Positions 3,053 to 63,130 of a stretch of DNA of 64,000 nt are shown here, piece by piece. The position numbers and the translations under genes were made by a program. This stretch comes from Minisyncoccota bacterium (GTDB lineage Bacteria; Patescibacteriota; Minisyncoccia; Phycocordibacterales; XYD1-FULL-46-19). Each line of letters begins with the position of its first letter. Position 1 is the first letter of the stretch. The notes under the pieces are model-generated. The model saw only the letters and a list, made by a program, of their open reading frames with translations. It was not told the DNA's origin and made no database searches. The stretch covers positions 94,240-158,239 of the forward strand of contig JBBDJY010000006.1 of assembly GCA_040879645.1 (NCBI GenBank). The letters are read 5' to 3'.

Positions 3053-3055
3053 AGT

Positions 3056-22480: not shown

Positions 22481-22481
22481 A

Positions 22482-22506: not shown

Positions 22507-22562
22507 TTAGTCCAATACCGAGGTTAAACCTCGGTATTGGAGGTTAAACCTCGGTATTGGAT
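22507..22562. repeat. Two tandem copies of the CCGAGGTTAAACCTCGGTATTGG palindromic repeat.
   Basis: ccaataccgaggttaaacctcggtattgg aggttaaacctcggtattgg. Confidence 0.85.
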
Positions 22563-22592
22563 TTGCAGCAATCCCGGCTTTCCCCGGCTATT

Positions 22593-30293: not shown

Positions 30294-30893
30294 ATGAGTG
30301 ATATTACTCTCGATGTCGGCCTCGCTTACAAGCTTAAGCAGGCACTATCTCGCAACAGTATTCCCGACGTTGCCGACCTTGATTGGTTGGCGACGGGCGA
30401 TAACATCGCCAAGATGCGTCGGGTGCGACTCGGCCACGCCGAGATCACCGACCCGGAGCACGTCATCGACTGCGATGATGCCGATCCGTTTATTCTGAAC
30501 AACTGGAAGTTCGAGGAACACCGCAAGGGCGGCGCGTTCAAGTGGAACGCCGCCGACGTGGCGCTTCACCTCGACAAGGGGCAACAGAACGGCAAGTGGA
30601 TCGAGGGCAACAAGCTCCGCAAGGAGCTGGCAGACAAAACCGTCTTGAACGCCAATGTCCTCGACTACCTGCTTGCCCATCCACACCTCATTCCCGAGGA
30701 ATGGAAGGGAAAGATGGTCTTCTTTTGGGGTACGATCTACCGCGACCGGTTCGGCGACCTCTACGTCCGTTACCTCCACTGGCTCGGCGACAGGTGGCGC
30801 TGGAACACCGGCTGGCTTGGCGACGTTTGGTACGACTACAACCCCGCCGCGATTTCCGCCGGTCTGCCGACCGATAGGCTTGATTATCGGTAG
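30294..30893 (+). CDS. Hypothetical protein with a Trp-rich C-terminus, in a high-GC, foreign-looking gene.
   Basis: 199-aa ORF at about 60% GC against a background of about 45%. Many overlapping alternate-frame ORFs on both strands are typical GC-rich artefacts. A terminator follows at 30998-31019. Confidence 0.55.
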   Translation: MSDITLDVGLAYKLKQALSRNSIPDVADLDWLATGDNIAKMRRVRLGHAEITDPEHVIDCDDADPFILNNWKFEEHRKGGAFKWNAADVALHLDKGQQNGKWIEGNKLRKELADKTVLNANVLDYLLAHPHLIPEEWKGKMVFFWGTIYRDRFGDLYVRYLHWLGDRWRWNTGWLGDVWYDYNPAAISAGLPTDRLDYR

Positions 30894-45849: not shown

Positions 45850-46737
45850 ATGAAGATCCACTCTGTTGGAATCGGGCTTATGCTCGTTGTTTTGCTCTTG
45901 GCCTACTCGGCCGAGGCGCAACGCAATCGCAACAAACTGCTGGGTGACGGTCGGGAGGTGGCCGCTCAGACTGGGGCCAACCCCCAGTCACAAGTGGAGC
46001 TCATCTCCATCCCCGCGGACCCGTCGAAACCGACCTTCTACGTCACCGTGGAAGAGCCGTTTGTGATGGCGGCCCAAGACATCACTTCCGGCGGTGGCAT
46101 CACGCCTGGCGCGCCGGAACAGTCTTACTTCATCTCCAACTGGTTAATCGCCACTCAGATGCACCATCCTCAAGCGATTAGCCCATCGGCCCCACTGAGC
46201 GAAAAGCTGGGTTATGGCATGGCCGCCCAGCTCACCAGTGTCTTGACCCGGATCGGCAATCTGGCCGTGATTGATTACCCCACTTATCGCGATAATCCGG
46301 GTCGTTATCCTGAGATTTTCGTCATTCGGGGTACAGTCACCGAGTTCACCGAGACCGATGGTCTGGATGAACAGAAGAAGGGTTTCGATACCAAAATCGC
46401 TGGCCGGGTACTCTCGATTATTGGCGGCGGACGCGGATTGGGCCAGGCTGGCAATCTCATCTCCAGCGCTAATGTTGGCCAGAAGAAGATCATCACCAAC
46501 CGAACCGGTGTGGTCGGCTTGGATATCCAGCTAATTCAAACGGCGACCGGCCGGGTGATGCGCTCGACCCCTTGCCAGGGAACCTTCACCACCCAAAGCG
46601 CCACGGAGATCCAACATGGTTTAGGCTTCAGCGAAAGCCAGTCCGAATACCAAGCTTCGGCTTTAAACCAAGCCAGTCGGGCGGCTTTGAACCAAGCCGC
46701 GACCGAAATTTGGCAAGCTCTGGCAACCACGCGATGA
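45850..46737 (+). CDS. Secreted protein of unknown function, possibly a CsgG-like periplasmic assembly component (weak resemblance), in a GC-rich islet.
   Basis: Signal peptide MKIHSVGIGLMLVVLLLAYSAEA, about 58% GC. AGGAGG lies upstream. Confidence 0.55.
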   Translation: MKIHSVGIGLMLVVLLLAYSAEAQRNRNKLLGDGREVAAQTGANPQSQVELISIPADPSKPTFYVTVEEPFVMAAQDITSGGGITPGAPEQSYFISNWLIATQMHHPQAISPSAPLSEKLGYGMAAQLTSVLTRIGNLAVIDYPTYRDNPGRYPEIFVIRGTVTEFTETDGLDEQKKGFDTKIAGRVLSIIGGGRGLGQAGNLISSANVGQKKIITNRTGVVGLDIQLIQTATGRVMRSTPCQGTFTTQSATEIQHGLGFSESQSEYQASALNQASRAALNQAATEIWQALATTR

Positions 46738-48716: not shown

Positions 48717-50402
48717 TCAGGCGTTGTTTTTAGGCACGTTTTTAGGTTTGTTCGTAAAGGCGGAATAATCAGCCACGCGAGTCAGTGACCCTTCGGCCAA
48801 GATGTAAGTGGAGTCAAGTTTAGCCCGCTCGAGAAAGTAGCGGTCATGTGAGACAAGAATGACCGTTCCGGTGTAAGTTGACAGGGTCTTTTCCAAGGCA
48901 AAAAGGGCAGCCAAGTCCAGGTGATTGGTCGGTTCATCAAGAATTAATGTATTCACCGACCGAGCGGAGAAGATGGCCAGAAGCAGGCGAGCTCGCTCGC
49001 CGGGACTTAGAGTCCCAACCAATTGCTTGACGCGGCTTTTATCAAAGCCAAACTTGGCCAGTTTGGCATAGGACTCTTGGCGACCCAATTTCGCTTGCTT
49101 CATCACACACTCAAGTAATGACAAATCTCGAGGCAAAGTTTCGTGTTCTTGCATCAAATTACCAACTTTAACGCCGGAACCGAGCTTGACCTCGCCGGCC
49201 AGCGGTGGCAGTTTGCCGGTAATTGTCTTGAGTAGAGTTGACTTGCCCGAACCGTTCAAACCAATGATTCCCAGACGATTGCCGTAGGAAATGTCCAAAG
49301 ATAACGGACCAACACGAAAGCCATCAGGGTAACCGGCAACCACGTCACTCAAAGACAAATGGCGCCGACCGGGGCCGGTTTTTGCCTCAAGCGGAATGGC
49401 AAAATCATCGGACTCAAACGGCTTTTCAATTTTCTCCATCTGGCCAATCCGCTTCTCAATCACTTTGGCGGCCCGGGCCGATTGTCCGGCCCGTTCACGC
49501 TTGAAACCCTTGAGCAGCTTGTCTCCATCGCTCCCCTGCCAGTGTGACCCTTTTTCTGATGATTGGCGTTTTTTCCTAGCGGTTTCGGTTAGGCGCTTAA
49601 CCTCTTTTTGCTGGAGGGTGTATTCGGTCTCTTGCCTGGCATTTTCTTTGGCCAATCTGGCCAAATAATCGCTGTAGGTACCACCAGAGACAATCAGGGT
49701 TTGCTGGCGAGAGTCTAGCCGGAAAATCTTTTTGGTCGTCCGGTCAAGAAATTGCCGATCATGAGAGACGACAATGCAAGTCGCCGAAATTTGCCGGATG
49801 AATTCCTCAAGCCAAATGAGAGCTGGTAAATCAAGATTATTGGTTGGTTCGTCAAGTAGAAGTAAATCAACCCCCCGGAGAAGAACTCCGGCCAAGGCCA
49901 CTTTGCTCTTCTGTCCGCTACTCAAGGCCGTCAACGGCTTATCAATATCGTCCTCGGTTAAACCAAATCCGGAAATGATTGCCTTCAACCTGAAGGTAAA
50001 AGTATAACCATCTAAACGCAAGTACTCTTCGTGTAGCTGATTATACTTTTGGGCCTGATCGGGTTGGTGAAGATCTGGCGACAAGTTCTCCAGTTCCTTT
50101 TCAATCTTGTCGATGCCGAGTAAAGCTCGAAGATGCTCGCCGACCGTTTCCTCTCCGGTCAAGCTCGTGTCTTGGGGCAAATAGCCGAGGCGAAGATCTT
50201 TCGCCAGCTTAATTTCACCACCATCAAGTTCTTCCAGACCGGCAATGATTTTAAGCAAAGTGGTCTTGCCGGACCCATTGTCTCCGACTAGGGCCACCTT
50301 GTCCCCTTCTTCCACCAAGAAAGAAACATCAGCCAACAAAGTCAGTGAGCCGTAGTTCTTGTGGATGTTTTTAGCTTGAATCATGCTCATATCTCCTTCC
50401 AC
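48717..50402 (-). CDS. ABC-F family ATPase (two nucleotide-binding domains, no transmembrane domain; EttA/Uup or ARE type).
   Basis: GDNGSGKTT + LSGGQKSKVALAG, then GLNGSGKST + LSPGERARL, with a charged linker; 561 aa. Confidence 0.85.
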   Translation of the reverse strand: MEGDMSMIQAKNIHKNYGSLTLLADVSFLVEEGDKVALVGDNGSGKTTLLKIIAGLEELDGGEIKLAKDLRLGYLPQDTSLTGEETVGEHLRALLGIDKIEKELENLSPDLHQPDQAQKYNQLHEEYLRLDGYTFTFRLKAIISGFGLTEDDIDKPLTALSSGQKSKVALAGVLLRGVDLLLLDEPTNNLDLPALIWLEEFIRQISATCIVVSHDRQFLDRTTKKIFRLDSRQQTLIVSGGTYSDYLARLAKENARQETEYTLQQKEVKRLTETARKKRQSSEKGSHWQGSDGDKLLKGFKRERAGQSARAAKVIEKRIGQMEKIEKPFESDDFAIPLEAKTGPGRRHLSLSDVVAGYPDGFRVGPLSLDISYGNRLGIIGLNGSGKSTLLKTITGKLPPLAGEVKLGSGVKVGNLMQEHETLPRDLSLLECVMKQAKLGRQESYAKLAKFGFDKSRVKQLVGTLSPGERARLLLAIFSARSVNTLILDEPTNHLDLAALFALEKTLSTYTGTVILVSHDRYFLERAKLDSTYILAEGSLTRVADYSAFTNKPKNVPKNNA

Positions 50403-51031
50403 TTAACCGCAATAAGATTATTATCTTCTTTCCAAGGCTTAGACATTGCTTTGATAAAAGTTTTTCGACCAACTTTCCGATTTTTAATTGGTGGCAATCC
50501 CGGATCATGGAAAGTAATATTATTATCTTCTATTGCCGTGATTAGAACCAAATGACTGGCATATCCTTTCTTTCTTTCCAAAACGTAAGGGTTAATTGAT
50601 ATCATAACCAAAAAGCCGTCATAGAAATACCTCTCAATATCACTGATAGAAATTTTTTTATTTATTAATTTAATTAAGGGATTCTTGATCAATTTCCGGG
50701 CTTGTATCTGTTCATTATCTAAATCAGAATATTTTTCTTGAACTTCAAAAACCTCTTTGCTCCAAATTTGGGCTAAATATTTTTTTCCTTGGCGAACAAA
50801 CTTTTTATAGTCGAGATTTTCAATATTAACCACCTCAAATCCCAGATTGGCTAAATATAGTAATCCTTGACTCTGCCAAGTCCATTGTTTCGGCTTATGA
50901 CCAATCAGGGGATCTAATATGTGATAGGGATAATTTTTATTCGGCAAATAATATTTTAAAACCATCCGCCAGCAAGCTGGCAAGCAACGAGTGTCATCTT
51001 TAGTATTTTTGTAAAAAGGAATATTAAGCAT
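50387..51031 (-). CDS. Standalone peptidase C39-like (papain-fold, bacteriocin-processing type) domain protein. The start is probably MLNIPFY; the listed ORF runs to 51076 through a terminator.
   Basis: DTRCLPACWRMVLKYY (catalytic Cys motif) and SHLVLITAIEDNNITFHDPG (His motif). Confidence 0.5.
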   Translation of the reverse strand: MLNIPFYKNTKDDTRCLPACWRMVLKYYLPNKNYPYHILDPLIGHKPKQWTWQSQGLLYLANLGFEVVNIENLDYKKFVRQGKKYLAQIWSKEVFEVQEKYSDLDNEQIQARKLIKNPLIKLINKKISISDIERYFYDGFLVMISINPYVLERKKGYASHLVLITAIEDNNITFHDPGLPPIKNRKVGRKTFIKAMSKPWKEDNNLIAVKWKEI

Positions 51032-51063
51032 AATTTTTATTAGGATAACACATAAATAAAATA

Positions 51064-51095
51064 GGCGGCAGGTCATGACCTGCCGCCAAGTGTCT
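51064..51095 (-). terminator. Rho-independent terminator after the Gly-rich micro-ORF.
   Basis: ggcggcaggtcatgacctgccgcc plus a T-rich run on the minus strand. Confidence 0.75.
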
Positions 51096-51112
51096 GACAG
51101 GGATTACTTCTT

Positions 51113-51181
51113 CCTGCCACCACCACCTCCGCCGCAACCACCACCGTTGTGATTACCGCCGTTGCCGGACATACTAACACC
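51113..51181 (-). CDS. 22-aa Gly-rich, Cys-containing micro-ORF, MSGNGGNHNGGGCGGGGGGRKK, with a strong Shine-Dalgarno. An in-frame 28-aa form starts at MRGGVS.
   Basis: GAGAGGAGGTGTTAGT ATG. Terminator immediately downstream. It is co-transcribed with the 61-aa ORF from the leader cassette. Confidence 0.35.
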
Positions 51182-51206: not shown

Positions 51207-51392
51207 CTACTTCTCAAGTGGCAAACGAATGCCCAAGGGTGAAAAGGAAGGATAACTAGTATTATATCTCTTCCTCCTATCCTTACTCCTCCTCCGCTCA
51301 GGGATTTTTGGGTCAGGATAGTTGAACCAAGGATTTTGTTGGCTTGAGGTTGAGTCAGAGGAAAATCCTGGCACTAGTTCTTCCGGGATCAT
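51207..51392 (-). CDS. 61-aa hypothetical peptide MIPEELVPGFSSDSTSSQQNPWFNYPDPKIPERRRSKDRRKRYNTSYPSFSPLGIRLPLEK.
   Basis: The ATG lies 9 nt after the cassette's AGGAGGTGA. The listed ORF starts at a GTG in that Shine-Dalgarno. Confidence 0.4.
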   Translation of the reverse strand: MIPEELVPGFSSDSTSSQQNPWFNYPDPKIPERRRSKDRRKRYNTSYPSFSPLGIRLPLEK

Positions 51393-51476: not shown

Positions 51477-51500
51477 TTTTGTTGGCAATAGCCGACAAAC
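51477..51500. promoter_or_regulatory. 20-bp imperfect palindrome TTGTTGGCAATAGCCGACAA (operator-like), copy B.
   Basis: Identical core at 59810-59829 and 61149-61168. Confidence 0.5.
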
Positions 51501-51592
51501 TGAAATAAAAATCAAGCCAAAATCCCCTTTATTTAAAATGTATTTTCTCCTCCGCAAAAAATTTCTCTGATTCTGTCGGCCGGTGACAACAC

Positions 51593-53269
51593 TTACTCTC
51601 CTGCTTGCTTTATTTCCTCTCGATTAGCCGAGGCGGCATCAGGTAATTCAAGGGTAAAAGTGGAGCCCTGGTCCTTGCCGGGCGAATTGGCGATAATTTG
51701 TCCTTGATGGGCTTCAATGATTTGTTTGGCGACAAACATTCCCAGACCGGTACCTTTGACATTTATCTTCCCCTCATCATCAGCCCGAACAAATTTTTGA
51801 AACAGTTTTTCAATTTCCTCCGCTTCCAAACCGACACCGGTGTCGGTGACATCAATCCTCACCTTTCCATCACCGGACTTAACCGCTACCTTTACCGAAC
51901 CGGCCGGCGTGTACTTAATCGCATTGTCGATAACATTGGAAATTACCTGACCGATTTTACCACTGTCGCCATAAACCAAGTACTCACCCTTGTCAGCCGT
52001 AAAGGATAATTTGATTTTCTGATTCTTGGCTGTCGCTTCGTATTCTTTAAGAACTTGTTCGGTTAAGTTCTTAAGATCAAATTCAGTCAATTCATATTTC
52101 ATCTTGCCCAATTCAATTCGCGTGATATTAAGAAAATCTTCAATCACCCGGACCAATTTCTGGCTGGATTCAAATACAATATCAACCTTTTCCTTTATTT
52201 TTTTCGGTACTTTTCCAAATGACCCTTCCAAAATCATTGATGAATACCCCTTGATGGCGGTCAACGGTGCCCGCAACTGATGCGAAGCGATAGAAACAAA
52301 TTCGGTCTTTTGTTTGTCCAATTCTTTCAATTTTTCATTAGCCCCAAACAAAGCTTTATTGACCTCTCTTAATTCTCCAGCCAATTTTTCAATGTGCTCT
52401 CTTTGTTTTATTTCCCGACGAACACTACGAATTAAATAAATGCCGAATATAAGTATTGATACAAAAATTAACGAATCCACCGCTCTTTCTATGATAGTGT
52501 TTGATCTAAATATTTGAGAAAAAATTATAATCCACAAAACTATTATAACTGCCTCAGTCACTATTATTTTAATATTAAAAAGTTCATATTTAGTAATTGC
52601 ATAGGCGGTTATCCCCATAAAAATTAGTGCATAAATAGAAATCAGGGGTAAAAATATTCCATTTCCGTAGATTATTATTGGAAGTAAGATTGTCCCAATA
52701 AGCAATAATAGCATCAGTGATATTCCGATTAAAATTAAAATGGATTGATATTGTCTGACTCCACTGTACTCTATTGTTTTTTTAAATAGAAAATATATGG
52801 CCAAGACACTAAACAAGGTAGATATAATCGCAAATGGAATTATTCCTAATCCAGCAATGGGATTTCCGCTATTATCTGTGGTATGGGTAAAGGCATAAGG
52901 AGATATATTTATAATTGCCATTACCGCAGTAAGAAGTAAAATTAAAACAAAATTACGTTGCGACATCATTATTTTATGACTTGGTATTGTATGGGCAAAT
53001 AGAAGGAACAAGGCGCTCATTAATGCCGCGAACATTATGCTAAGACGATGAAAGAAAATAGCTAATGATTCTATTTCTGGTAGTCCGGCTATATATCCTG
53101 ACCATAACCAAAACAATATAAAAATACTTAGCAATGAAAAAATTATATTGGTAGCACTTTTTTTATTACTGTAATAAATAGTAAAAATCAGTACGATTGA
53201 TCCTATCGACACTCCAGCAAGAAAAAATAACTCTAATTCACTTACTATATTAGAAAAAATTTCAATCAT
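51593..53269 (-). CDS. Sensor histidine kinase with a 7-transmembrane N-terminal domain; no response regulator is adjacent.
   Basis: HisKA region VSIASHQLRAPLTAIKGY, HATPase_c region DTGVGLEAEE...GTGLGMFVAKQII, 558 aa. Confidence 0.85.
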   Translation of the reverse strand: MIEIFSNIVSELELFFLAGVSIGSIVLIFTIYYSNKKSATNIIFSLLSIFILFWLWSGYIAGLPEIESLAIFFHRLSIMFAALMSALFLLFAHTIPSHKIMMSQRNFVLILLLTAVMAIINISPYAFTHTTDNSGNPIAGLGIIPFAIISTLFSVLAIYFLFKKTIEYSGVRQYQSILILIGISLMLLLLIGTILLPIIIYGNGIFLPLISIYALIFMGITAYAITKYELFNIKIIVTEAVIIVLWIIIFSQIFRSNTIIERAVDSLIFVSILIFGIYLIRSVRREIKQREHIEKLAGELREVNKALFGANEKLKELDKQKTEFVSIASHQLRAPLTAIKGYSSMILEGSFGKVPKKIKEKVDIVFESSQKLVRVIEDFLNITRIELGKMKYELTEFDLKNLTEQVLKEYEATAKNQKIKLSFTADKGEYLVYGDSGKIGQVISNVIDNAIKYTPAGSVKVAVKSGDGKVRIDVTDTGVGLEAEEIEKLFQKFVRADDEGKINVKGTGLGMFVAKQIIEAHQGQIIANSPGKDQGSTFTLELPDAASANREEIKQAGE

Positions 53270-54330
53270 CTGTAATTTATTTTAGGTAATAACTTTGTCG
53301 ATTTAGCTGAAGGCTCTCCGTCATATCCTATGCGCAGGATCGTTGTGATAATCCCATTTAATCTACAAATTGACTCTATCCCATGATAAGCCGTCTTAAT
53401 TTCATTATTGTCTTTTTCCGTAAATACCTGTGAAGCGGTTTTTTCTTCAACGGCTTGGTGAAAGAATAATAACCCACTGTTTAATTGTACTGACAAATTA
53501 TTTTTTGTTGCCGCTAACCAAATTGATTGGACTTGTCTCCCAACGTCAATAAAAGATTTACTATCTTTTAACTTAGCGCTAATAATACACAGCCCGGCAC
53601 AAGCGGAATGTGTCTCCTTATTTTCTGCGGCAATTTTTTTAGCGATGCCTAGTTTAAGCGCCAAAGACATAATTGGCCAATATTTAAGTAATCGCATCAA
53701 TAGTCTTTTGCCGAAGCTTAATTCCAGTGTATGGATTAATAGTCCCCCACCTCTTAACTTTTCTTCATTTTTATTCCAAACCAATTCTTTAAAAAAAAGT
53801 CTGTTTAAAAATTTATTTTCAAACATTATTCTTTCACCGACTGATAAATATTTAGCGATTTCGTCTATACTCGTTCGATTATAGATAAAATTAACATTTA
53901 CTTGATTATTAAAATTTATATATTTTTTTAAATCTGAAACAACGTTTTCCGTGATTGCCTCTTTGGCGTAAGGTTTTCGATTAGAGGCCCGCTTATGCAA
54001 ATAACTGTATAAAGGGCTTAATTTAACCGAGTCATCGTCTATTAACTCTATCGAAGCCGTTAATTTGGGCTCATTTTGATTAGGAAATATTTTTACAATA
54101 GCTTTTAAGTTGTGCTTGGTCGAAGCAATGGCAATATTTTCAATCAAGGCCCCATGAGCGATATAGGTTCCTCGATTTCGGACGTTTAGAACCGCGTGAT
54201 CTTTTTCCGGCTGAGCAAATATATTAATGGTGTTATCTTTTATTTCAAAGTACCAAGGCTGAGAATTTCCTCCCGATGGAGCATCGTAACTATCAGCCAG
54301 TATTTTTTCTATTATCACCTGATTAACCAT
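53266..54330 (-). CDS. Nitroreductase-family flavoprotein, enlarged (354 aa; tandem or SagB-like dehydrogenase type).
   Basis: PSGGNSQPWYF signature near the N-terminus. The length exceeds simple nitroreductases of about 200 aa. Confidence 0.6.
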   Translation of the reverse strand: MVNQVIIEKILADSYDAPSGGNSQPWYFEIKDNTINIFAQPEKDHAVLNVRNRGTYIAHGALIENIAIASTKHNLKAIVKIFPNQNEPKLTASIELIDDDSVKLSPLYSYLHKRASNRKPYAKEAITENVVSDLKKYINFNNQVNVNFIYNRTSIDEIAKYLSVGERIMFENKFLNRLFFKELVWNKNEEKLRGGGLLIHTLELSFGKRLLMRLLKYWPIMSLALKLGIAKKIAAENKETHSACAGLCIISAKLKDSKSFIDVGRQVQSIWLAATKNNLSVQLNSGLLFFHQAVEEKTASQVFTEKDNNEIKTAYHGIESICRLNGIITTILRIGYDGEPSAKSTKLLPKINYR

Positions 54331-54337
54331 AGTTTTA

Positions 54338-55378
54338 TTATATCAAATTTTCATTAAAACCACTCTCTTTAATCCCGGTCGCCTTTATTATTTTAGCCAC
54401 CCCTTTTTGCCAAGTGGCAATCGGGGTGATTTTAAGTCGAGGAATATCCGGCACTTGTTCATCAACCATATATCTAAATTCTCCGGCGGTCAGAAGAGAT
54501 CCAATTAGTAATCCTTCGGCGGTTAACAGGTTGGAAAATTTGGTTAAATCCTCGATGTTTTCTATCTTTTCAGTTTTCAGATAGTGTTGTAAAGTTTTTG
54601 TGGTTATTTGCCCGGAGACATACAACTTTTTTGTAAGCTCTATCAATTTGTCCATATCTAACCAGTAGGTTGGGAATTTATAGGAATAAAAAGATCGGTC
54701 AACATTTAATTTTTTATTGGGAGGCAGGCCTAAAGTTTCTTCGGCGGCAATAAAAGGCATGGCGGTTACTTTCCCATTTTTATTCAGGGCAATCACTTTA
54801 TTTTGGATATCACCCCTGACGATAGCGGTAACATATTCAAAGGTATTGATGTCTTCAGAATAATCAGCTATAAATTGCGCCTGCATCAGGGCGAAACATA
54901 TAGCGGTAAATTTATGTTTAGTTGAGTTTTTTTTGTTTATAAAACACGGATGAACCCCACACATTCTGGAGTCAGAATACACTTTAGACCATAGATTCTT
55001 ATTTGACCAATTCATTTTGTCGCACAGTAACTTAGGTACCGGCTGATTTTTATATTTATACAATTCTATTTCTCCAATCCCGGTAAATAATCCATCCCCG
55101 GGAACCATGCGCACACTCAACCATTCTTCGGTTTCTTTACCGTACCGGGCCCGGGCAAGATAGATAACAGCCTTATCGTCATATTTATCAAATAATTCCC
55201 GTGCCCCATATTTTTTGTATGAACCTCTGGCCAAGGCCAGGATTTTATACAGGCTTTTATCTAACCACTTTTTGTTATTTAAGTCTTTGGCACGGTAAAT
55301 CTCAAATTCTGCTTCAGCTGTAGAATAAACAGCTAAGGGTTTGGGTAATTTAAGCAGTGTCTCTGATATATTATTCAT
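54338..55378 (-). CDS. Hypothetical protein (346 aa) with a possible acyltransferase-like fold (very weak LuxI/FeeM/FemX-like impression).
   Basis: No clear motif was found. It is tightly packed inside the operon. Confidence 0.4.
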   Translation of the reverse strand: MNNISETLLKLPKPLAVYSTAEAEFEIYRAKDLNNKKWLDKSLYKILALARGSYKKYGARELFDKYDDKAVIYLARARYGKETEEWLSVRMVPGDGLFTGIGEIELYKYKNQPVPKLLCDKMNWSNKNLWSKVYSDSRMCGVHPCFINKKNSTKHKFTAICFALMQAQFIADYSEDINTFEYVTAIVRGDIQNKVIALNKNGKVTAMPFIAAEETLGLPPNKKLNVDRSFYSYKFPTYWLDMDKLIELTKKLYVSGQITTKTLQHYLKTEKIENIEDLTKFSNLLTAEGLLIGSLLTAGEFRYMVDEQVPDIPRLKITPIATWQKGVAKIIKATGIKESGFNENLI

Positions 55379-55383
55379 TGTAA

Positions 55384-56505
55384 TTAAATGTCCAATAGAT
55401 TGTTTAATTGCTTAAGGGTTTTTTGCCTTTGTTTTATGGCGTCTTTTTTTTGAAAATCAGAATCTAAAGTTGAAATCGGACTAAAGACATATTTGCCAGA
55501 CTTAAGATGATCAGTTGTTAAAATCATTTTGACAGTCATTGCTAATATTGATCCGGACATTACCGCCGCAATCCCTAATTGAGGTACATGGTTAATCGTT
55601 TGACCAATTGCTATGAGTGACTTTTGTAGATCTTCTTCCATAAATTCTGTTCCGATAATTTTAGAAGAAAGTTTACTCCAGGCTTTCGGGTCTTTATGGC
55701 GCAATAATGCCAGCCCGATATTTTTTGGTAAACTTACTCGGCCGTGGAAAATCGGGTATTTAGGGTCTCTATCATATCTTTCGATGTCTAAGATAATACC
55801 ATTGCCATTATCGGTCGCCATTAAAACGGGGATTTTCTTTTGTCTTGCTTTTTGCCTTATCCTCACTTTCATCATCAAATTATCCATCTCATCAATTAAG
55901 ATGTCGACGGCCGATAAAAAATTATCAATATTTTTCTCAGTTACTCCTTGGCGGAATATCTTTATGTCAGCGTAGGGGTTATTTTGATAGATATATTCGG
56001 CTGTTCTTTCTGCTTTATTCTGGCCAATATCGAGAAAATCAAAATGGAGCCGGTTTAGGTTGGTGCCAGAAATCTTGTCTCCATCCGCGATTTTCAAGTG
56101 TTTGGCAATACCGGACATCGAAAGAACCATGGCGGCATGACTACCAACGCTTAATCCGGCAATGGCAATTGTCGCATTATATAATTTATCTTGAGCAATA
56201 CTTGATACGACTTCTTTATTGCGAGCGGTTCTTAATTCCTGATGAAGGTCTTCCGGTAAATAGGAGACTAAAGTTTTGTTCCAAGGAAAATAAAACCAAG
56301 TTCCAGGCTTTGTTTGTTTTTTATTGTTTGGAAGATTTTTTATGAATTGTTTAAATTTGGGATCGTTTTTCGATTTTACTTTCTTTAGCGGATTTCTGAC
56401 TTGATAAAGCTCATAGATCAAATCGTCATATTTATCAATTTTTTTAGATATTTCATGAGAATTCTCAAATTTTTTTAGATTTAAAACTCGAATTGGTTTT
56501 TTCAT
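55384..56505 (-). CDS. ThiF/MoeB/E1-like adenylyltransferase with an N-terminal extension of about 105 aa.
   Basis: Rossmann/E1 signature IAIAGLSVGSHAAMVL...IADGDKISGTNLNRL, 373 aa. Confidence 0.7.
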   Translation of the reverse strand: MKKPIRVLNLKKFENSHEISKKIDKYDDLIYELYQVRNPLKKVKSKNDPKFKQFIKNLPNNKKQTKPGTWFYFPWNKTLVSYLPEDLHQELRTARNKEVVSSIAQDKLYNATIAIAGLSVGSHAAMVLSMSGIAKHLKIADGDKISGTNLNRLHFDFLDIGQNKAERTAEYIYQNNPYADIKIFRQGVTEKNIDNFLSAVDILIDEMDNLMMKVRIRQKARQKKIPVLMATDNGNGIILDIERYDRDPKYPIFHGRVSLPKNIGLALLRHKDPKAWSKLSSKIIGTEFMEEDLQKSLIAIGQTINHVPQLGIAAVMSGSILAMTVKMILTTDHLKSGKYVFSPISTLDSDFQKKDAIKQRQKTLKQLNNLLDI

Positions 56506-56515
56506 GGATCCTTAA

Positions 56516-57625
56516 CTACTTTCTTAAATCGGCAATATATTTGTTTTTATAAGAACTTGTTTTGGATGCATCTATGTTTTTTTGGAAAATAATTTTTTTA
56601 TTTTTTAAAAAATTGAGAGTTTCGTTTATTTCGGCTTCTTTCTTCTTTACTTTATTATCAATAAAAATTTCAACCAGATCTCTATCATTGTTGGTTTTAA
56701 TATAAACCATAAATTGGTCGGTAAATTTAAGTAACGAATCTATAATTTTTGTTTTAGATGTCAGAATACCCTGGACTTTAATTAAATCATCACTCCGGTT
56801 TATTATTTCAAATTCCTTCAACGATCCATTCCGGTTATATTTTACATTATCCAAAATATCCCCCGTTTTATATCGGATTATCGGTGTGGCCAGATTATAT
56901 AAATCAGTGACAACTAAATGTTTTAAGTTTTTAATTTCTATCGCTTCAACATATATACCATTGCTTATGACGGTTATTTTTTGAGGATCATCTTTTTTTG
57001 ATACCCCAATCGCCGGGCACTCGGTTAGGCCAAAGTGATTAATGACTTCAATCCCATACCTTTTAAATGTATCGGTATAGCTGTCTAAAAGTCTCTCGCC
57101 GGCGACAATTATCTTTTTGGGGAAATATCTTGATTTTTTTTCTTGTGCCAACAAGTTAAGTAAACTGATGGCATAACTGGGGACCGAAAGCCAAACATTT
57201 GGCCTGATCTTTTTTATTGCTTCTATCATCTTATCTTTAGGATAAGTGTTAGGGGCGCCTAGCGGTATTACCGAAATGTCCATTTTTTGGCAGGCCTTTT
57301 CGTACATACTCCCCGGCACATAATTACCATAGGCAAAAAGGTTTAAGACGATATCGTCTTTTGCTACTCCTGATTTTTTAAGCGATTTAATGGCCCGACT
57401 GATAAAGTGATGAACCGCTTGTTTTGAGTAAAAAACATATAAAGGGAGCCCGGTTGACCCGCTGGTAACCCGTAACTCTAAAAAAGATTTAGGCGTCTTA
57501 AATTTTTTAATTACGTTTTTATTACTGACTGGTACCTCGCTCCAGGTTTTTATTTTTGAGCCCCGATGAAAATTACGTAATATGTCTTGTTGTCGTATTT
57601 TTAGCGATGATTTGTTGTTTTTCAT
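56516..57625 (-). CDS. Adenylate-forming enzyme of the PaaK / coenzyme F390 synthetase / CapK-like family (ANL superfamily).
   Basis: VTSGSTGLPLYVFYS (A3-like), HFGLTECP (A5-like) and YKTGDIL (A8-like). Confidence 0.65.
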   Translation of the reverse strand: MKNNKSSLKIRQQDILRNFHRGSKIKTWSEVPVSNKNVIKKFKTPKSFLELRVTSGSTGLPLYVFYSKQAVHHFISRAIKSLKKSGVAKDDIVLNLFAYGNYVPGSMYEKACQKMDISVIPLGAPNTYPKDKMIEAIKKIRPNVWLSVPSYAISLLNLLAQEKKSRYFPKKIIVAGERLLDSYTDTFKRYGIEVINHFGLTECPAIGVSKKDDPQKITVISNGIYVEAIEIKNLKHLVVTDLYNLATPIIRYKTGDILDNVKYNRNGSLKEFEIINRSDDLIKVQGILTSKTKIIDSLLKFTDQFMVYIKTNNDRDLVEIFIDNKVKKKEAEINETLNFLKNKKIIFQKNIDASKTSSYKNKYIADLRK

Positions 57626-57636
57626 AGAGGAAGAAT

Positions 57637-58044
57637 TTAAACTACATAAAATTTTTCTTCAACCTCGGCCCTTATCTCGCCTCTTATTTTATATTTTCGA
57701 GAATAATTTGTTTTTGAGATAAGAATTCTTTTTAAATTTTTATTTTGAAAAATTTTACCAAATGGTTCATTGGGATTATGAGTGGCCCAATCATTAACAA
57801 ATTTGTTTTTTTTAAGTTTGTTAGTGGCTTGGCATAGGATTTTATCATTTTTTAAAAAGGCAATTTCTCGAAAGATAAAATCTTCGGTTATTTTTTGTTT
57901 TAATAGTTTGAACTCGACATCAGGAATATTTTTTTCAATATATAAAGTTGTTGATAAGGTAATATCATTTAATAATTCGAAAAACCACGGTGCCTCTTTT
58001 TTATTCATTCCAGCAAAAAAGCGATGCAAAAAAATAGCTTTCAT
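57637..58044 (-). CDS. Hypothetical 135-aa protein.
   Basis: ORF in the operon. It is preceded by a 19-aa micro-ORF (58063-58122, MEKYLIKKSYLDMTLLGEK) with an AAAGGTGG Shine-Dalgarno. Confidence 0.4.
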   Translation of the reverse strand: MKAIFLHRFFAGMNKKEAPWFFELLNDITLSTTLYIEKNIPDVEFKLLKQKITEDFIFREIAFLKNDKILCQATNKLKKNKFVNDWATHNPNEPFGKIFQNKNLKRILISKTNYSRKYKIRGEIRAEVEEKFYVV

Positions 58045-59520: not shown

Positions 59521-59545
59521 AAAACGCCTGTTTAGGCGAGGATTT
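59521..59545 (-). terminator. Small hairpin plus T-run after the GreA-C-like gene.
   Basis: cgcctaaacaggcg followed by ttttttt on the minus strand. Confidence 0.5.
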
Positions 59546-59783
59546 TTTCAACTTTGATTACCACTTGGCGATCTCGAATCACTCCTGGTTTTTCTTCACC
59601 CGCCTGCATTTCAAGCAGAAGTGAAGCCAAGGGAGCATCGCTCGCAATTTTACCTTCGGCGATATCGGTTTGGCCAAGGCCGACAATGGTCCAAGTTTGG
59701 GACTGACCGTTAACCGTGACGGCTATTCGGTTGCCAATCTGGACTTTTGGCGCTTTTTGTTCATGGATTTCTTTGGTTTCCAT
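59532..59783 (-). CDS. GreA/GreB C-terminal (FKBP-like) domain-only protein of 84 aa. The start was moved to METKEIH; the listed TTG start lies inside the operator palindrome.
   Basis: RIAVTVNGQSQTWTIVG..ADIAEGKIASDAPLASLLLEMQAGEE resembles the GreA C-terminal domain. Confidence 0.45.
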   Translation of the reverse strand: METKEIHEQKAPKVQIGNRIAVTVNGQSQTWTIVGLGQTDIAEGKIASDAPLASLLLEMQAGEEKPGVIRDRQVVIKVEKILA

Positions 59784-59807
59784 TAAGGTGATAATAGGCC
59801 CCCGGCC

Positions 59808-59915
59808 AATTGTTGGCAATAGCCGACAAAATGACTTTGATTTTAGTCAAAAATATCCTTGGTTTGCAATCTTTGCCGGCTAAGAGAGAGAATTTCACCG
59901 GTTTTGTTGGGGCTG
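59808..59915. repeat. Repeated regulatory module of about 110 bp, copy D. It contains the palindrome TTGTTGGCAATAGCCGACAA and a TTGACT box.
   Basis: 64 nt are identical to 61147-61209, followed by a similar tail (..ccgrttttgttgggg..). Confidence 0.8.
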
Positions 59916-59936
59916 GATGACAAATCAAGACAATTT

Positions 59937-60485
59937 TTATTTTATATATAGAAAATGTAAAATATGCCAATTTTTGATCTTGTCCTGCCTGGTTAATCCC
60001 TGACCAATATCTTCTGAAGAAAAATAAGGCGGAATGGATAACAATGAGAGTGATTCATCCCGCGAATAAAATGACATTTTTCCTCTTCTTTCCGTCACCC
60101 AGCCATCATTAGGGCCAAATAAAGTAAAATAAAGAAAACCGGATTCGTCCAATGACCGGAAGGCCGTTTTAATTATTCGCGCAATCTCTTGTTTATCGGT
60201 GATAAAAGGTAAAACATTAGCCATTATGATGCCGTCATATTTCTGATTAAAAACAAAATCCTGAATGTTTTTATTTTCAATTCGCCAATAACCATCCTCT
60301 GCTATTTCTTTAAAATTTTTTTGGGCTTGAATCAGCGCTCCCTCGTCTACATCTACTAAAGTTACCTGATATCCGTATTTTAGAAAATCCATTGCTTGCC
60401 GACCATCACCGCCACCCAGGTCAATTAATTGACCGTCAGCTTTTAATAACTTCTCATTTTTTAATTTTTTAAATAAAGGAATCAT
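59937..60485 (-). CDS. Class I SAM-dependent methyltransferase (TehB-like).
   Basis: LIDLGGGDGRQA (motif I), VTLVDVDE, 182 aa. Confidence 0.7.
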   Translation of the reverse strand: MIPLFKKLKNEKLLKADGQLIDLGGGDGRQAMDFLKYGYQVTLVDVDEGALIQAQKNFKEIAEDGYWRIENKNIQDFVFNQKYDGIIMANVLPFITDKQEIARIIKTAFRSLDESGFLYFTLFGPNDGWVTERRGKMSFYSRDESLSLLSIPPYFSSEDIGQGLTRQDKIKNWHILHFLYIK

Positions 60486-60587
60486 AAAATTATTTTAATA
60501 TTTATATTAATTTTAAAACATTAACAAAAAAATCGCGCAATTACCACAGTAACTGCGCGATCCAAGTCTTGGTCACAGAATAGGTAA

Positions 60588-61067
60588 TCAGGTGCAATTG
60601 ACAGTGCCATTGCAATCGTAGTCAGGGGAGCAATCTAACCCACAGCCAACTCGCCCAGATATAGCTCCTTCCTTCGCCCATCCCCAATTGTCAGAGATGA
60701 GAACAGGATCAAGATGTTTCTTGACAGCCTTAATGGTCCGAAGGATACAATCACGGTCTGATACCGAGTCACGTTCTGTCTTAGGAACGTGGTGAATGAA
60801 AACACCAAATTCCCTCTGACAAAATTCTGCGTAGTCTCGCGTGAATAAAATGAAAGAATGCCACCCCTCATCAATAATTGAAGGCGGGGCAATGCTCTCA
60901 TTTTCTTGCTGAGTCAGCCACAGAAATGTTAAGGTATCCCTGAACAATTCCTCGGCTTCTTCCATTGGAAGGCAGAGGTTCCGTGAAAGACGGCTCACTA
61001 CTCCATGGTTATCGTAGTGAAGAACGTCTTCAAGAGAAGCCTTGTTCTCTGTTTGTTGCAAAGTCAT
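60588..61067 (-). CDS. Hypothetical protein with a DUF1399/GRDP-like motif and a Cys-rich C-terminal tail. The start is the ATG after the cassette's Shine-Dalgarno.
   Basis: IIDEGWHSFILFTRDYAEFCQREFG fits a W-H...L....Y...C...[FY]-G pattern, recalled from memory. The tail reads GCGLDCSPDYDCNGTVNCT. Codon usage is more GC-rich than the neighbours. Confidence 0.5.
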   Translation of the reverse strand: MTLQQTENKASLEDVLHYDNHGVVSRLSRNLCLPMEEAEELFRDTLTFLWLTQQENESIAPPSIIDEGWHSFILFTRDYAEFCQREFGVFIHHVPKTERDSVSDRDCILRTIKAVKKHLDPVLISDNWGWAKEGAISGRVGCGLDCSPDYDCNGTVNCT

Positions 61068-61135
61068 ATAATCACCTCCTTTCAAAGACCAAGTTTTTCT
61101 TTGGACCTATTTCCAAAGAATCTAATATCACCTTA
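61068..61135 (-). promoter_or_regulatory. Conserved 5' leader cassette, copy C: TATTAGAT, a 7-bp hairpin CTTTGGA/TCCAAAG, then AAAAACTTGGTCTTTGAAAGGAGGTGA.
   Basis: Seen directly. Confidence 0.6.
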
Positions 61136-61146
61136 CTGAAAAAAAG

Positions 61147-61255
61147 AATTGTTGGCAATAGCCGACAAAATGACTTTGATTTTAGTCAAAAATATCCTTG
61201 GTTTGCAATATCTTTCGATTTCAGGTGGAAATTTTGCCGATTTTGTTGGGGAGAT
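61147..61255. repeat. Repeated regulatory module of about 110 bp, copy C (palindrome at 61149-61168), lying between divergent genes.
   Basis: See copy D. Confidence 0.8.
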
Positions 61256-61316
61256 TAAACAATCCATTCGTCGCCAAAATATGCAATGGATATTGTTTGT
61301 GAGATAATAAATATCT

Positions 61317-62198
61317 ATGAGATTAGATATCATTGTCAATAAACAGGCAAATTTCTATTTTTTTGCCCAAAATCTTTCCGAATGGCATTTCAGTAATCGA
61401 AAAGATTACAATACTTTATGGCGTAAAGAATTAGGAAAATTTTCAGATGATGAAGAATTAGCCATTAAACATCTAAAAAAGATTCATCTGCGGTATTCGT
61501 TTGGTAAATCATATTTAGGACGTCACTTTTTTCTTGAAGAAAATCCTTGGTTTTTTTTAAAGACGAGAATGGCTCAAGAAGACTTTATTACACTTAAAAA
61601 TATTTTCTCTTTATTGGAAGATAAGTTTAATCTTTTTTGGAGTAAAGAAGCGCCATTGCTTTTAGCGTGGCAAAAAGAATTAGCCAATAAAGCAGATGAT
61701 CACCTAATGATAGAAAATATCATTGAATTACTGAAAATAATTTTCAATACTAATCCTTCAACGTCTGAAGTGGCGATAAACCTATTGCCGTCTTCCCCTG
61801 TCCATACCGGAGGCGGAGCAAATATTGACAGTAAAAATATAACTTTAGAAATTTCTCGATACCCCAAGCAAGGCACCAATCACGCTATGAGTCTTATTTG
61901 GCATGAAATTATCCATCTATGTTTCCAAGAACAGTATTTCTCCGCGCTAGTGTCAGAAAAATTGCCAAACGATAGACAAAAAGCTGATTTGATAAATGAA
62001 ATTGCTATCAGGTCTTTATTTCCTAGGGGTATTTTAGGGATAAGATTATTCAAAGAGGAGTCTAGGCGTAAATTAATAGAAGAAACTAATCCGGAACAAA
62101 CAGTTAAAATTATTGACCTGGCAAAAGAGTATGTGGACGATAAAAAGTCCTTTGATAATACATATATAGAGAAAATTTTGGAGATTTTAAAAATATAA
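61317..62198 (+). CDS. Hypothetical HExxH protein (putative zinc metallopeptidase).
   Basis: WHEIIH motif, 293 aa. Confidence 0.45.
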   Translation: MRLDIIVNKQANFYFFAQNLSEWHFSNRKDYNTLWRKELGKFSDDEELAIKHLKKIHLRYSFGKSYLGRHFFLEENPWFFLKTRMAQEDFITLKNIFSLLEDKFNLFWSKEAPLLLAWQKELANKADDHLMIENIIELLKIIFNTNPSTSEVAINLLPSSPVHTGGGANIDSKNITLEISRYPKQGTNHAMSLIWHEIIHLCFQEQYFSALVSEKLPNDRQKADLINEIAIRSLFPRGILGIRLFKEESRRKLIEETNPEQTVKIIDLAKEYVDDKKSFDNTYIEKILEILKI

Positions 62199-62272: not shown

Positions 62273-62980
62273 ATGGAGAAAAAAGAGAAAAAACATATTA
62301 AATTAAAGACGGGAAAGGGAGATAAAACTATCGATGTTTTTTTTGGCACCGGATTTGTAAACAAAAAAACTATTGGAATGATTAAAATTGGGGTACAAAA
62401 AGCTTTCAAATTCTTTAATCAAGTTGAAAAAGTTAATTTCAGGATAGACCTTGTCTCATCTAGATCGGAATTTGACAAAAAAATCGGTTTTAAGACTGAG
62501 GATTGGTTTATTGGAAATTCATTTGGGAATAAGTTTATGATATTTAGTCCCGAGACGATAGAAAAAGAGACTAGTCATAAAAAAAATGAATTTATTCCCC
62601 TCATAGCGCATGAAACCGCCCACATTTTGCATAAAAAAATTAATCCTAATTTTAGTCACTGGATGAGTGAAGGTATTGCTCAAAATATTGCCGAGCAAAA
62701 AACAAAAAAAGATATAAAACCCGAGAACATAAAACATTTTTTAGAGCATAATTTATTCCAAAATTCTGATTATAGAGAGTTCATCTCTCATCAGGGTTAT
62801 GAAATTTCGAATAAATTGACCAAGTTTTTTATTGATCATTATAGTAAAAAACAAGTCATGGACTTATTGAAAATAAAATACAGTTCCTCACCTGTTGTGA
62901 TTGAAAAAAAGTTTTGTGATAGATTAAGAATCGACAAGAATCATTTGATTCTTGCGGTTAAAAATATCTTGAAGGATTAA
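62273..62980 (+). CDS. Putative zincin-like metallopeptidase (HExxH + E).
   Basis: IAHETAHILHK...SEGIAQ, 235 aa. Confidence 0.5.
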   Translation: MEKKEKKHIKLKTGKGDKTIDVFFGTGFVNKKTIGMIKIGVQKAFKFFNQVEKVNFRIDLVSSRSEFDKKIGFKTEDWFIGNSFGNKFMIFSPETIEKETSHKKNEFIPLIAHETAHILHKKINPNFSHWMSEGIAQNIAEQKTKKDIKPENIKHFLEHNLFQNSDYREFISHQGYEISNKLTKFFIDHYSKKQVMDLLKIKYSSSPVVIEKKFCDRLRIDKNHLILAVKNILKD

Positions 62981-63045: not shown

Positions 63046-63115
63046 GCCGCCACCCAGGTCAATCAATTGACCGTCAGCTTTTAATAACTTCTCATTTTTT
63101 AAATAAAGGAATCAT
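63046..63115. repeat. Duplicated fragment of about 70 bp, copying the 5' end and start region of the methyltransferase gene at 60409-60490.
   Basis: gccgccacccaggtcaat(c/t)aattgaccgtcagcttttaataacttctcatttttt...aaataaaggaatcat. Confidence 0.8.
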
Positions 63116-63130
63116 TGATAAGATATATTT

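Follow-up and report, generated by a model that had tools for sequence, protein, structure and literature searches.

The gene, its family and its predicted fold

The DNA analysed here is a stretch of 64,000 nucleotides from a Minisyncoccota bacterium (contig JBBDJY010000006.1 of assembly GCA_040879645.1, positions 94,240 to 158,239), which we refer to as the window. On its minus strand it carries a gene for a protein of 159 residues in which a conserved N-terminal domain is followed by a short cysteine-rich tail, and which is homologous to MctA, a protein required for the activity of the Escherichia coli microcin Mcc1229. A gene for a methyltransferase lies directly downstream. The gene, its parts and this partner are located as follows:

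60588..61067, minus strand: coding sequence of 159 residues, UCP032817-like (PF27765) and MctA-like (open reading frame and sequence, identical database entry, similarity to MctA)
61073..61081, minus strand: ribosome-binding site AAGGAGGTG, 5 nt upstream of the ATG (seen in the sequence itself)
60657..61040, minus strand: predicted N-terminal all-alpha domain of seven helices, residues 10-137 (predicted structure)
60783..60872, minus strand: core block, residues 66-95, D66-x2-W69-H70 ... T76-x2-Y79-x2-F82-C83 ... G88-x-F90-x-H92-H93-x-P95 (alignment conservation)
60591..60656, minus strand: C-terminal cysteine-rich tail GRVGCGLDCSPDYDCNGTVNCT, residues 138-159, C142-x3-C146-x5-C152-x5-C158 (sequence; low model confidence)
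60521..60563, minus strand: intrinsic terminator directly 3' of the gene, with a T-run behind a 15-bp stem (terminator scan)
59937..60485, minus strand: class I S-adenosylmethionine (SAM)-dependent methyltransferase of 182 residues, TehB/Methyltransf_25-like, the downstream partner (Pfam)

The open reading frame, the motif DEGWHSFILFTRDYAEFCQREFG (DEGWH...FCQREFG, residues 66-88) and the tail were all present where the initial annotation of this DNA had placed them. The frame runs from an ATG at 61067 to a stop codon at 60588-60590. A longer frame that starts with TTG and reaches to 61085 begins 5' of the ribosome-binding site, and the ATG at 61067 is therefore the true start. In a large protein collection the translated sequence is identical to WDZ85_02175, a hypothetical protein from a metagenome-assembled genome of Candidatus Paceibacterota, and we accordingly speak of the Paceibacterial protein.

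Scans with Pfam-A and NCBIfam returned zero matches, even at E <= 10; for Pfam this is explained by the copy used, which did not hold the PF27765 model. The identical entry and 12 relatives, in other words all 13 matches of the first search round, carry the precomputed assignment PF27765.1, a family of unknown function named UCP032817-like (formerly PIRSF UCP032817). A profile search of 1.84 billion representatives of clusters at 50% identity collected 11,946 sequences at E <= 1e-3 and 4,916 at E <= 1e-10, mostly stand-alone proteins of 145-190 residues. Judged by its sequence, the Paceibacterial protein is a full-length member of PF27765, of typical size and with a typical cysteine-rich tail. 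Within the family it sits in a subgroup from the candidate phyla radiation (CPR) that is marked by the tail DC[SA]P[DE]xDCNG and a methyltransferase neighbour. A literature search found no paper that mentions UCP032817 or PF27765, and PHROGs and PADLOC gave nothing for the protein or for three relatives. Members of the family also occur in phage- or plasmid-like contexts, beside HerA/DnaB/HNH or SLT genes in two of the loci described below (L008, L009), and in three phage records, namely Streptomyces phage Kromp (gp33), Klebsiella phage 05F01 and an unannotated human-faecal 'Bacteriophage sp.' (MH744420, LC483177, MT837770); PHROGs holds no model for these phage-encoded members.

In alignments of 131-150 family members D66, W69, H70 and Y79 are invariant, while R26, P61, F72, L74, T76, F82, C83, G88, F90, H92, H93, P95 and W128 are invariant or conserved to at least 90% in at least one of the two alignments. 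The structure model of the protein (predicted local distance difference test, pLDDT, 86.6) consists of seven helices, and when this predicted fold was compared with structure libraries no known enzyme was matched.

The initial annotation had assigned the protein to DUF1399 (PF07173), the domain of the plant glycine-rich domain proteins (GRDPs), relying on a W-H...L....Y...C spacing that the protein appears to have in common with the DUF1399/GRDP-like proteins. In direct comparison the PF07173 hidden Markov model (HMM) did not match the protein at E <= 10. It likewise matched none of 150 family members at E <= 1 and, at E <= 10, none of 10 members named 'glycine-rich domain-containing protein' by NCBI, a name that many members of the family bear. 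Membership in DUF1399 is thus rejected by the HMM for 161 proteins, and the motif fails as a mark of this family. What survives of it is a remote resemblance. When the predicted structure was compared with BFVD using Foldseek, the top three matches were all giant-virus proteins, the first of them a Harvfovirus 'Glycine-rich domain-containing protein-like' protein (E 4.2e-3, probability 1.00, template modelling scores 0.49/0.55, 23% identity over 101 columns), and an Orpheovirus 'Glycine-rich domain-containing protein' ranked sixth. These matches between models suggest that the relation to GRDP-like proteins, which appears to be real, is one at the level of a superfamily rather than of DUF1399 itself.

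Plant GRDPs (GRDP1/2, with PF07173 homologues in giant viruses) likewise end in a low-complexity glycine-rich region with cysteines, and AtGRDP2 combines DUF1399 with a C-terminal glycine-rich domain that has interspersed cysteines and the consensus [CG]GGGCGG[GC] (PMC4299439). The PF27765 tail, with 12.2% Gly and 12.9% Cys, is compositionally analogous to this domain but cannot be aligned with it. The plant proteins differ in being multidomain proteins of about 800 residues with an RNP-1 motif, and the tail of the Paceibacterial protein is rich in Cys, Asp, Asn and Ser instead of being dominated by Gly. The remote link would offer a bacterial handle on the plant family.

Homology to MctA and the cysteine-rich tail

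A tblastn search of plasmid sequences located relatives of the Paceibacterial protein on 171 plasmids, among them 25 small mobilizable E. coli plasmids. On pHUSEC41-3 the match is a 227-residue 'hypothetical protein', followed by an ATP-binding cassette (ABC) exporter (ABC_membrane and ABC_tran domains) and a JmjC_2 cupin; DUF4440 and DUF2164 are encoded close by. This locus is the microcin Mcc1229 cluster, and its first gene encodes MctA. In a BLASTP comparison the Paceibacterial protein and MctA share 33% identity over 123 residues (E 4e-21), with all conserved residues of the core block also present in MctA; the HMM of the family recognises MctA with an E-value of 7.5e-28. The C-terminal end of MctA (...GSVCGCSGKGCGAGCSCNSR / ...WNDNGSVCGCSGKGCGAGCSCNSR) has 5 Cys in its last 17 residues, as compared with 4 in the last 18 of the Paceibacterial protein.

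MctA is the only genetically studied member of PF27765. Mcc1229 activity depends on Hp1 (= MctA), MctB (an ABC transporter) and MctC (a cupin). It is heat-stable, sensitive to proteinase K, exported through TolC, imported by way of CirA and TonB and SOS-inducing, while MctD and MctE provide immunity (10.1101/646182; PMC8853679). The authors remarked on the cysteine-rich C-termini of mctA-like open reading frames; the Mcc1229 molecule itself was never identified (10.1101/646182; PMC8853679). A review takes the 232-residue product as the putative microcin (PMC10233263), and a preprint of 2026 still calls the mode of action unknown. Mcc1229 is of medical relevance since it induces Shiga-toxin and other prophages, and the present comparison places MctA in a family of about 12,000 clusters with a cysteine-rich tail. 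The Paceibacterial protein is a CPR member of this large family, which is named but uncharacterised and in which the presumed Mcc1229 precursor is the one protein studied so far.

MctA and the Paceibacterial protein resemble each other in their homologous N-terminal domains, in a C-terminus rich in Cys, Gly and Ser, and in the order of their genes: both genes come first and a modifying enzyme follows, in the case of mctA within mctABC(DE) on p0.1229_3 and pHUSEC41-3. They differ in length, MctA having 227 residues and an extra linker of about 45 residues compared with 159 residues in the Paceibacterial protein, and in their partners, which for MctA are the ABC exporter, the JmjC cupin and DUF4440/DUF2164, whereas the Paceibacterial gene is followed, behind a terminator, by the SAM methyltransferase. 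The secreted antibacterial phenotype, moreover, is known for E. coli only, the Paceibacterial protein having no known bioactivity.

In order to describe the tail across the family, we examined 260 members with a recognisable core and counted as tail all residues after the conserved Trp. The median tail comprises 27 residues. At least 3 Cys are found in 86% of these tails and none in 3%, most members having exactly 3-4. Cys makes up 12.9% of the tails as compared with 1.9% of the domains, a 6.9-fold enrichment, Gly, Ser and Asn are enriched about 2-fold, and Asp 1.5-fold. The initial annotation had described the Cys/Gly/Ser/Thr/Asp-rich tail from a single sequence; its cysteine-rich character is kept in 86% of these relatives, and the tail is a biologically meaningful part of the protein. 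The gaps between successive cysteines are mostly of 2-5 residues and follow no dominant pattern, the commonest one occurring in 15 of the 260 members. Subfamilies have tail motifs of their own. The Paceibacterial protein and its closest relatives, at 52-54% identity, share a tail of the type DC[SA]P[DE]xDCNG...C, and elsewhere 'CxGSTNCQ', the actinobacterial 'CSQCHNGCxDDPPP' and 'GCRASGKDGNENTDT' are found. In the structure model of the Paceibacterial protein the tail is poorly ordered (mean pLDDT of 53 and 48 in its two blocks).

Tail identity falls to 0.32 at a domain identity of 0.50, which is close to the baseline of 0.30 for random pairs, and amounts to 0.54 at 0.69 and to 0.82 at 0.85; on these values the tail evidently diverges faster than the domain. 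One actinobacterial subset (L028, L036, L041, L055, L066, L074, L085, L091) ends in C-x-x-G-D-D-G-C-[RA]-A-S-G-K-D-G-N-E-N-T-[DE]-[TS]. The conservation of this ending far exceeds that of other tails and suggests a specific site of recognition or modification.

Adjacent enzymes and the possible role of the tail

The genomic surroundings of the family were surveyed in 88 non-redundant loci (80 loci from species-representative genomes and 11 from assemblies before redundancy was removed; related loci were searched for with an alignment of 13 sequences), and all open reading frames within 3 kb of the family gene were clustered. A methyltransferase gene immediately adjoins the family gene in 17 of the 88 loci, including the window, and in 10 of the 16 CPR loci, nearly always downstream and on the same strand. 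Only 3 other matches to the same methyltransferase model occur within +/-5 kb of the family genes (Fisher p 3.5e-9 for adjacency). The partner methyltransferases are class I SAM enzymes of 175-245 residues of the Methyltransf_25/11/23 type with weak similarity to TehB/TPMT, and against the PDB the methyltransferase partner matched only generic methyltransferases and TehB. The recurrent partner of the family is the adjacent methyltransferase, which the initial annotation did not mention. In 9 of 12 methyltransferase-linked loci, as in the window, a GC-rich hairpin with a U-run lies between the two genes, and the family gene is therefore set off as a transcription unit of its own ahead of the methyltransferase.

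Other enzymes occupy the same place in other lineages. In 26 actinobacterial loci an APH-family phosphotransferase of about 290-330 residues, for which the PDB comparison gave no match, is encoded directly downstream on the same strand, mostly within a few tens of bases and in some loci overlapping the family gene by a few bases. In one locus (L011) the order is family gene, methyltransferase and JmjC_2, and on a Rhodococcus plasmid an AlkB-like dioxygenase gene lies directly upstream of the family gene. Between 5 and 9 loci, according to the query used, have an ABC exporter gene no more than 3.2 kb from the family gene. The searchable literature holds no description of methyltransferase-linked or APH-linked arrangements of this family.

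A reverse search that started from the methyltransferase of the window yielded three closest homologues. One of them (L098) once more follows the gene of a family member, this one with the tail CCGEECAPDRDCN, and a C39 peptidase is encoded two genes away. In the second, on a contig of 2 kb (L097), the methyltransferase is followed, as in the window, by a gene for a GreA/GreB C-terminal-domain (GreA-C) protein (1433-1684), the two being 77% and 61% identical to the copies in the window; no family gene lies directly upstream, where an alpha/beta-hydrolase-like gene is found instead. The third (L099) lies behind a tRNA-synthetase gene, with no family member. A relic of the methyltransferase gene, comprising its first ~24 codons, is located at 63047-63116 on the minus strand, 2.6 kb upstream of the intact start region at 60409-60485 (minus strand); over a core of 56 nt the two copies are 98% identical, and 8 nt have been deleted from the relic. 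Relic and intact gene bracket the gene of the Paceibacterial protein, its leader and two unannotated plus-strand genes (61317-62198, 62273-62980), which suggests that a past duplication or insertion placed the bracketed segment in front of the methyltransferase.

Starting from what is established, that is the family membership, the homology to MctA, the family-wide cysteine-rich tail, the pairing of the genes and the terminator, we tentatively favour a reading in which the protein is an MctA-like precursor or scaffold, the tail is the part that is acted on, and the downstream methyltransferase is the tailoring enzyme. The compact seven-helix domain (residues ~10-137) would serve as a large leader or recognition domain, and the flexible 22-residue tail, rich in Cys, Gly, Ser, Asp and Asn (C-x3-C-x5-C-x5-C), would be the functional, modified part, the modification presumably being methylation in the Paceibacterial protein. 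In other lineages the place of the methyltransferase would be taken by a kinase of the APH type, by a 2-oxoglutarate oxygenase of the JmjC or AlkB type, and/or by an ABC exporter. The Paceibacterial gene would be transcribed from its own promoter and 5' untranslated region (5'UTR) cassette, be translated from a strong ribosome-binding site and end at the intrinsic terminator, so that its product would probably be made in excess over the methyltransferase. A product derived from the tail might then be released, or might itself act as a bioactive peptide. We favour this model because a conserved helical domain, a faster-evolving, poorly ordered tail, an adjacent enzyme of a peptide-modifying type and sometimes an exporter come together, and because MctA is needed for a secreted peptide toxin and no other essential open reading frame of its cluster could encode that toxin. 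By this argument we infer that MctA is the precursor of Mcc1229.

Precursors with large leader domains are found among the ribosomally synthesized and post-translationally modified peptides (RiPPs), for instance those of the NHLP and Nif11 types, and McbA, the precursor of microcin B17, likewise joins a long N-terminal leader to a short variable core. With these the family shares a conserved N-terminal region, a variable C-terminal core rich in Cys, Ser and Gly, and tailoring enzymes encoded alongside, and in composition the MctA tail presumably resembles the Gly/Cys/Ser core of McbA. The general hallmarks of a RiPP locus, a co-localised tailoring enzyme and a precursor gene separated by a terminator, are both found in the family. 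There is no sequence relationship to the NHLP and Nif11 precursors, however (0 matches in NCBIfam at E <= 10), and the Paceibacterial protein differs from these and from McbA in that it lacks a double-glycine site and that neither a C39-ABC transporter nor a cyclodehydratase is encoded next to it.

Several observations weigh against a precursor. The chemical identity of Mcc1229, and hence the role of MctA as its precursor, is unproven. Pfam scans of the neighbours of the Paceibacterial gene (the methyltransferase, the GreA-C protein and unknowns) showed no exporter or cupin, phmmer searches with MctB and MctC found no match in the 9.4-kb segment 54588-64000, DUF4440 and DUF2164 were absent among the 20 window proteins scanned, and most of the 88 loci are without an exporter. 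No double-glycine site directly precedes the tail, and among the fetched loci no peptidase is consistently encoded near the family gene. Instead of the cysteine-rich tail a helix is found in several subfamilies from proteobacteria and myxobacteria, and the roughly 3% of members without any tail Cys count on the same side. The N-terminal domain contains an invariant polar constellation (D66, H70, Y79, C83, H92, H93, R26) that, from its conservation, looks more like a metal or active site than like part of a passive leader. Finally, two members are fused to HATPase_c_2 and many actinobacterial loci lie beside helix-turn-helix regulators, which points to signalling.

Much of this would suit a different role, which we consider possible, if less probable than that of a precursor. 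The protein may remain intact in the cytoplasm as an adaptor, activator or sensor of the neighbouring group-transfer enzyme (methyltransferase, APH kinase or HATPase_c_2), its tail cysteines, maybe together with C83 and the conserved His, binding Zn, Fe-S, Cu or a metalloid or acting as a thiol switch. Trm112, which activates methyltransferases, provides a model for such an accessory protein. The prevalence of exactly 3-4 tail cysteines with short spacings of 2-5 residues argues for it, as do the invariant His, Asp, Tyr and Cys of the domain, which suggest a ligand site, and the low AlphaFold confidence of the tail, as commonly seen in loops that need a metal in order to fold. The APH gene, being directly next and in some loci overlapping by a few bases, would fit a 1:1 complex; fusions to HATPase_c_2 exist; many loci have housekeeping or regulatory surroundings and no exporter; and the partner methyltransferases are similar to the chalcogen and thiol methylases TehB/TPMT. 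An enzyme-activating role also has a parallel in cotton, where GhGRDP1 binds and activates UDP-rhamnose synthase (PMC13001069). On the other side, no single Cys spacing is kept throughout the family, the tail has reached the random baseline by 50% domain identity, the only homologue studied, MctA, is required for a toxin that is secreted and sensitive to protease, and the terminator between the gene and the methyltransferase speaks against strict 1:1 co-expression. Of the two readings of the tail offered by the initial annotation, that of a modifiable core peptide on a large N-terminal domain is supported by the homology to MctA, and that of a metal-binding knot stays as its rival. Should the metal or redox role prove true, the family would be a widespread, uncharacterised partner of small methyltransferases and kinases.

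Quite unlikely, in our estimate, is that the helical domain is itself an enzyme, perhaps metal-dependent, whose His/Asp/Tyr/Cys site acts on its own tail or on another Cys/Gly-rich peptide such as the 22-residue MSGNGGNHNGGGCGGGGGGRKK encoded elsewhere in the window. In the model D66, H70, Y79, H92/H93 and C83 lie on adjacent helix faces, the upstream cassette described below also drives the mini-gene of that Gly/Cys-rich peptide, and plant GRDPs join a GRDP-like domain to a glycine-rich domain with interspersed Cys (PMC4299439). Against this, the fold matches no known enzyme, a cofactor-binding signature is missing, and the link between cassette and small peptide is confined to this genome, judging from the fetched loci and the metagenome matches.

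The membership of MctA in PF27765 turns the precursor or scaffold reading into a concrete hypothesis, in which the tail forms the core, and supplies a large number of orthologous systems for examining it. If it is true, the pairing of a precursor with a methyltransferase in a reduced CPR genome points to a secreted or regulatory peptide relevant to an episymbiotic lifestyle. A far wider generalisation, which we regard as speculative and on the whole improbable, would see in the GRDP-like/UCP032817-like domain and its Cys/Gly-rich tail an ancient cross-kingdom module of bacteria (including CPR), giant viruses and plants, in which the domain brings to its own tail whichever tailoring enzyme is specific to the lineage, be it a methyltransferase, a kinase or a 2-oxoglutarate oxygenase. 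On this view PF27765 would represent an undescribed and very large class of ribosomal, cysteine-rich, modified peptides, the DNA-damaging microcin Mcc1229 being its first example, and the Paceibacterial protein would be a methylated variant used by an episymbiont against its host or competitors.

The upstream cassette and the surrounding genes

The initial annotation had noted that the gene is preceded by a leader cassette shared with other genes, and this is borne out by a repeat of ~105 nt present in three copies (51477-51581, 59808-59912 and 61147-61251). Its 20-nt core TTGTCGGCTATTGCCAACAA, the invariant imperfect palindrome TTGTCGGC-TATT-GCCAACAA, occurs 3 times in the window as compared with 0.02 expected occurrences. 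The copies, their elements and the peptidase gene behind copy 1 are these:

61083..61251, minus strand: cassette copy 3, before the gene of the Paceibacterial protein (repeat search, alignment, promoter scan)
61208-61179, minus strand: sigma70-like promoter TTGCAA-18-TAAAAT of copy 3 (promoter scan)
61168-61149, minus strand: palindrome TTGTCGGC-TATT-GCCAACAA of copy 3 (alignment, core count)
61120-61097, minus strand: 9-bp hairpin of copy 3 (alignment, folding)
59808..59912, minus strand: cassette copy 2, before the gene of the 83-residue GreA-C protein at 59532-59783 (repeat search, Pfam)
51477..51581, minus strand: cassette copy 1, before open reading frames 51392-51207 (61 residues) and 51172-51104 (MSGNGGNHNGGGCGGGGGGRKK), which are followed by a terminator and the gene of a C39-like peptidase (repeat search, alignment)
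50387-51076, minus strand: stand-alone C39-like peptidase, 9.5 kb from the gene of the Paceibacterial protein (Pfam)

The promoter TTGCAA-18-TAAAAT is conserved in copies 2 and 3, with the palindrome just downstream of it. Copies 1 and 3 have a hairpin of 9-10 bp whose arms differ in a compensatory manner (TTCCCGGAA/TTCCGGGAA in one, TTCTTTGGA/TCCAAAGAA in the other) and run into the same ribosome-binding region CTTTGAAAGGAGGTGA. The putative 5'UTRs fold more stably than shuffled controls, with z-scores of -2.9 (the copy before the Paceibacterial gene) and -2.2 (the copy at 51477). No Rfam family reached its gathering threshold anywhere in the window, and a scan of 59700-61400, a region with two of the three copies, gave nothing above noise at E <= 10. 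The 20-nt core is absent from the 91 fetched loci, and a widespread element was rejected: the five exact matches in metagenomes are unrelated, at least 4 of them lying in coding regions that read ...LSAIANN.... A peptide encoded by the cassette was likewise rejected, as the apparent conservation of open reading frames on both strands follows from the nucleotide identity alone and no ribosome-binding site is present. In our interpretation the cassette is a unit of promoter, operator and 5'UTR that was duplicated in this genome and is specific to it, and that would put three units under common control, namely the small peptides before the C39-like peptidase, the GreA-C-like protein and the Paceibacterial protein.

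The small open reading frames behind copy 1, at 51207-51392 (minus strand; 61 residues, MIPEELVPGF...) and 51104-51172 (minus strand; the 22-residue Gly/Cys-rich MSGNGGNHNGGGCGGGGGGRKK), each have a strong ribosome-binding site AGGAGGTG. The MSGNGGNHNGGGCGGGGGGRKK stretch has a GC content of ~0.59, and its composition recalls the plant GRDP consensus [CG]GGGCGG[GC] and the MctA tail.

Further upstream on the minus strand, an AT-rich operon at 53266-58044 encodes a 135-residue protein of no recognised type, an AMP-binding (PaaK-like) ligase, a ThiF/E1-like protein with weak similarity to TcdA, ThiF, MccB and PaaA, an uncharacterised 346-residue protein and a 354-residue protein whose N-terminus weakly matches nitroreductases; a gene for a seven-transmembrane (7TM) histidine kinase (51593-53269) comes next. 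From its gene content this operon may be a peptide-modification cluster, with no YcaO detected. Beside the C39-like peptidase, at 48717-50402 (minus strand), lies the gene of an ABC-F-like ATPase that has two ABC_tran domains and ABC_tran_Xtn and is without a membrane domain; a homologue (E 8.8e-44) is encoded at 2054-3517 of another locus (L022), directly upstream of a pair of family gene and methyltransferase gene.

The initial annotation had looked to this operon and to C39 peptidases for genes that co-occur with the family. In the other fetched loci no counterpart of the ThiF/E1-like, nitroreductase-like, 346-residue or C39-like protein of the window was detected close to the family gene. 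A single one of these loci, L098, has a C39 peptidase near its family gene, and this peptidase has no detectable match in the window and is missing from the remaining fetched loci. It is therefore very unlikely that the tail is the substrate of the local E1-like/nitroreductase-like/AMP-ligase operon (53266-57625), in the manner of a thiazole/oxazole-modified microcin with the cassette providing co-regulation and the C39-like peptidase cleavage: the three cassette copies do link the gene with the GreA-C-like gene and with small peptides just downstream of the operon and upstream of the peptidase, the E1-like protein does resemble ThiF/TcdA and the RiPP enzymes MccB and PaaA, and L098 does have its nearby C39 peptidase, but besides the missing co-occurrence no YcaO was detected and the ATPase beside the peptidase looks like an ABC-F-type protein, not an exporter.

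With respect to base composition, the gene of the Paceibacterial protein is richer in GC (0.463) than the flanking genes (0.27-0.38), as the initial annotation had noticed. This contrast is a local one. Among 55 genes the window has a mean GC of 0.434 and a mean GC at third codon positions (GC3) of 0.442, from which the gene deviates by z-scores of +0.4 and +0.1, respectively, so that the codon usage described as atypical in the initial annotation is ordinary for the window. The AT-rich outlier is the neighbourhood at 50-64 kb, and horizontal acquisition of the gene, as judged from GC, was rejected for the same reason.

Two other genes, both on the plus strand, do stand out by their composition. 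Those at 30294-30893 and 45850-46737 have a GC content of 0.58 and 0.57 and a GC3 of 0.77 and 0.67, respectively (GC3 z-scores +3.7 and +2.5), and are candidates for recent horizontal acquisition; the product of the latter has a weak match to CsgG. Elsewhere in the window, palindromic units CAATACCGAGGTTAAACCTCGGTATTG are repeated between genes at 12401-12449 and 22479-22593, the second region forming a 54-nt inverted repeat, and look like repetitive extragenic palindromic (REP)- or terminator-like intergenic elements.

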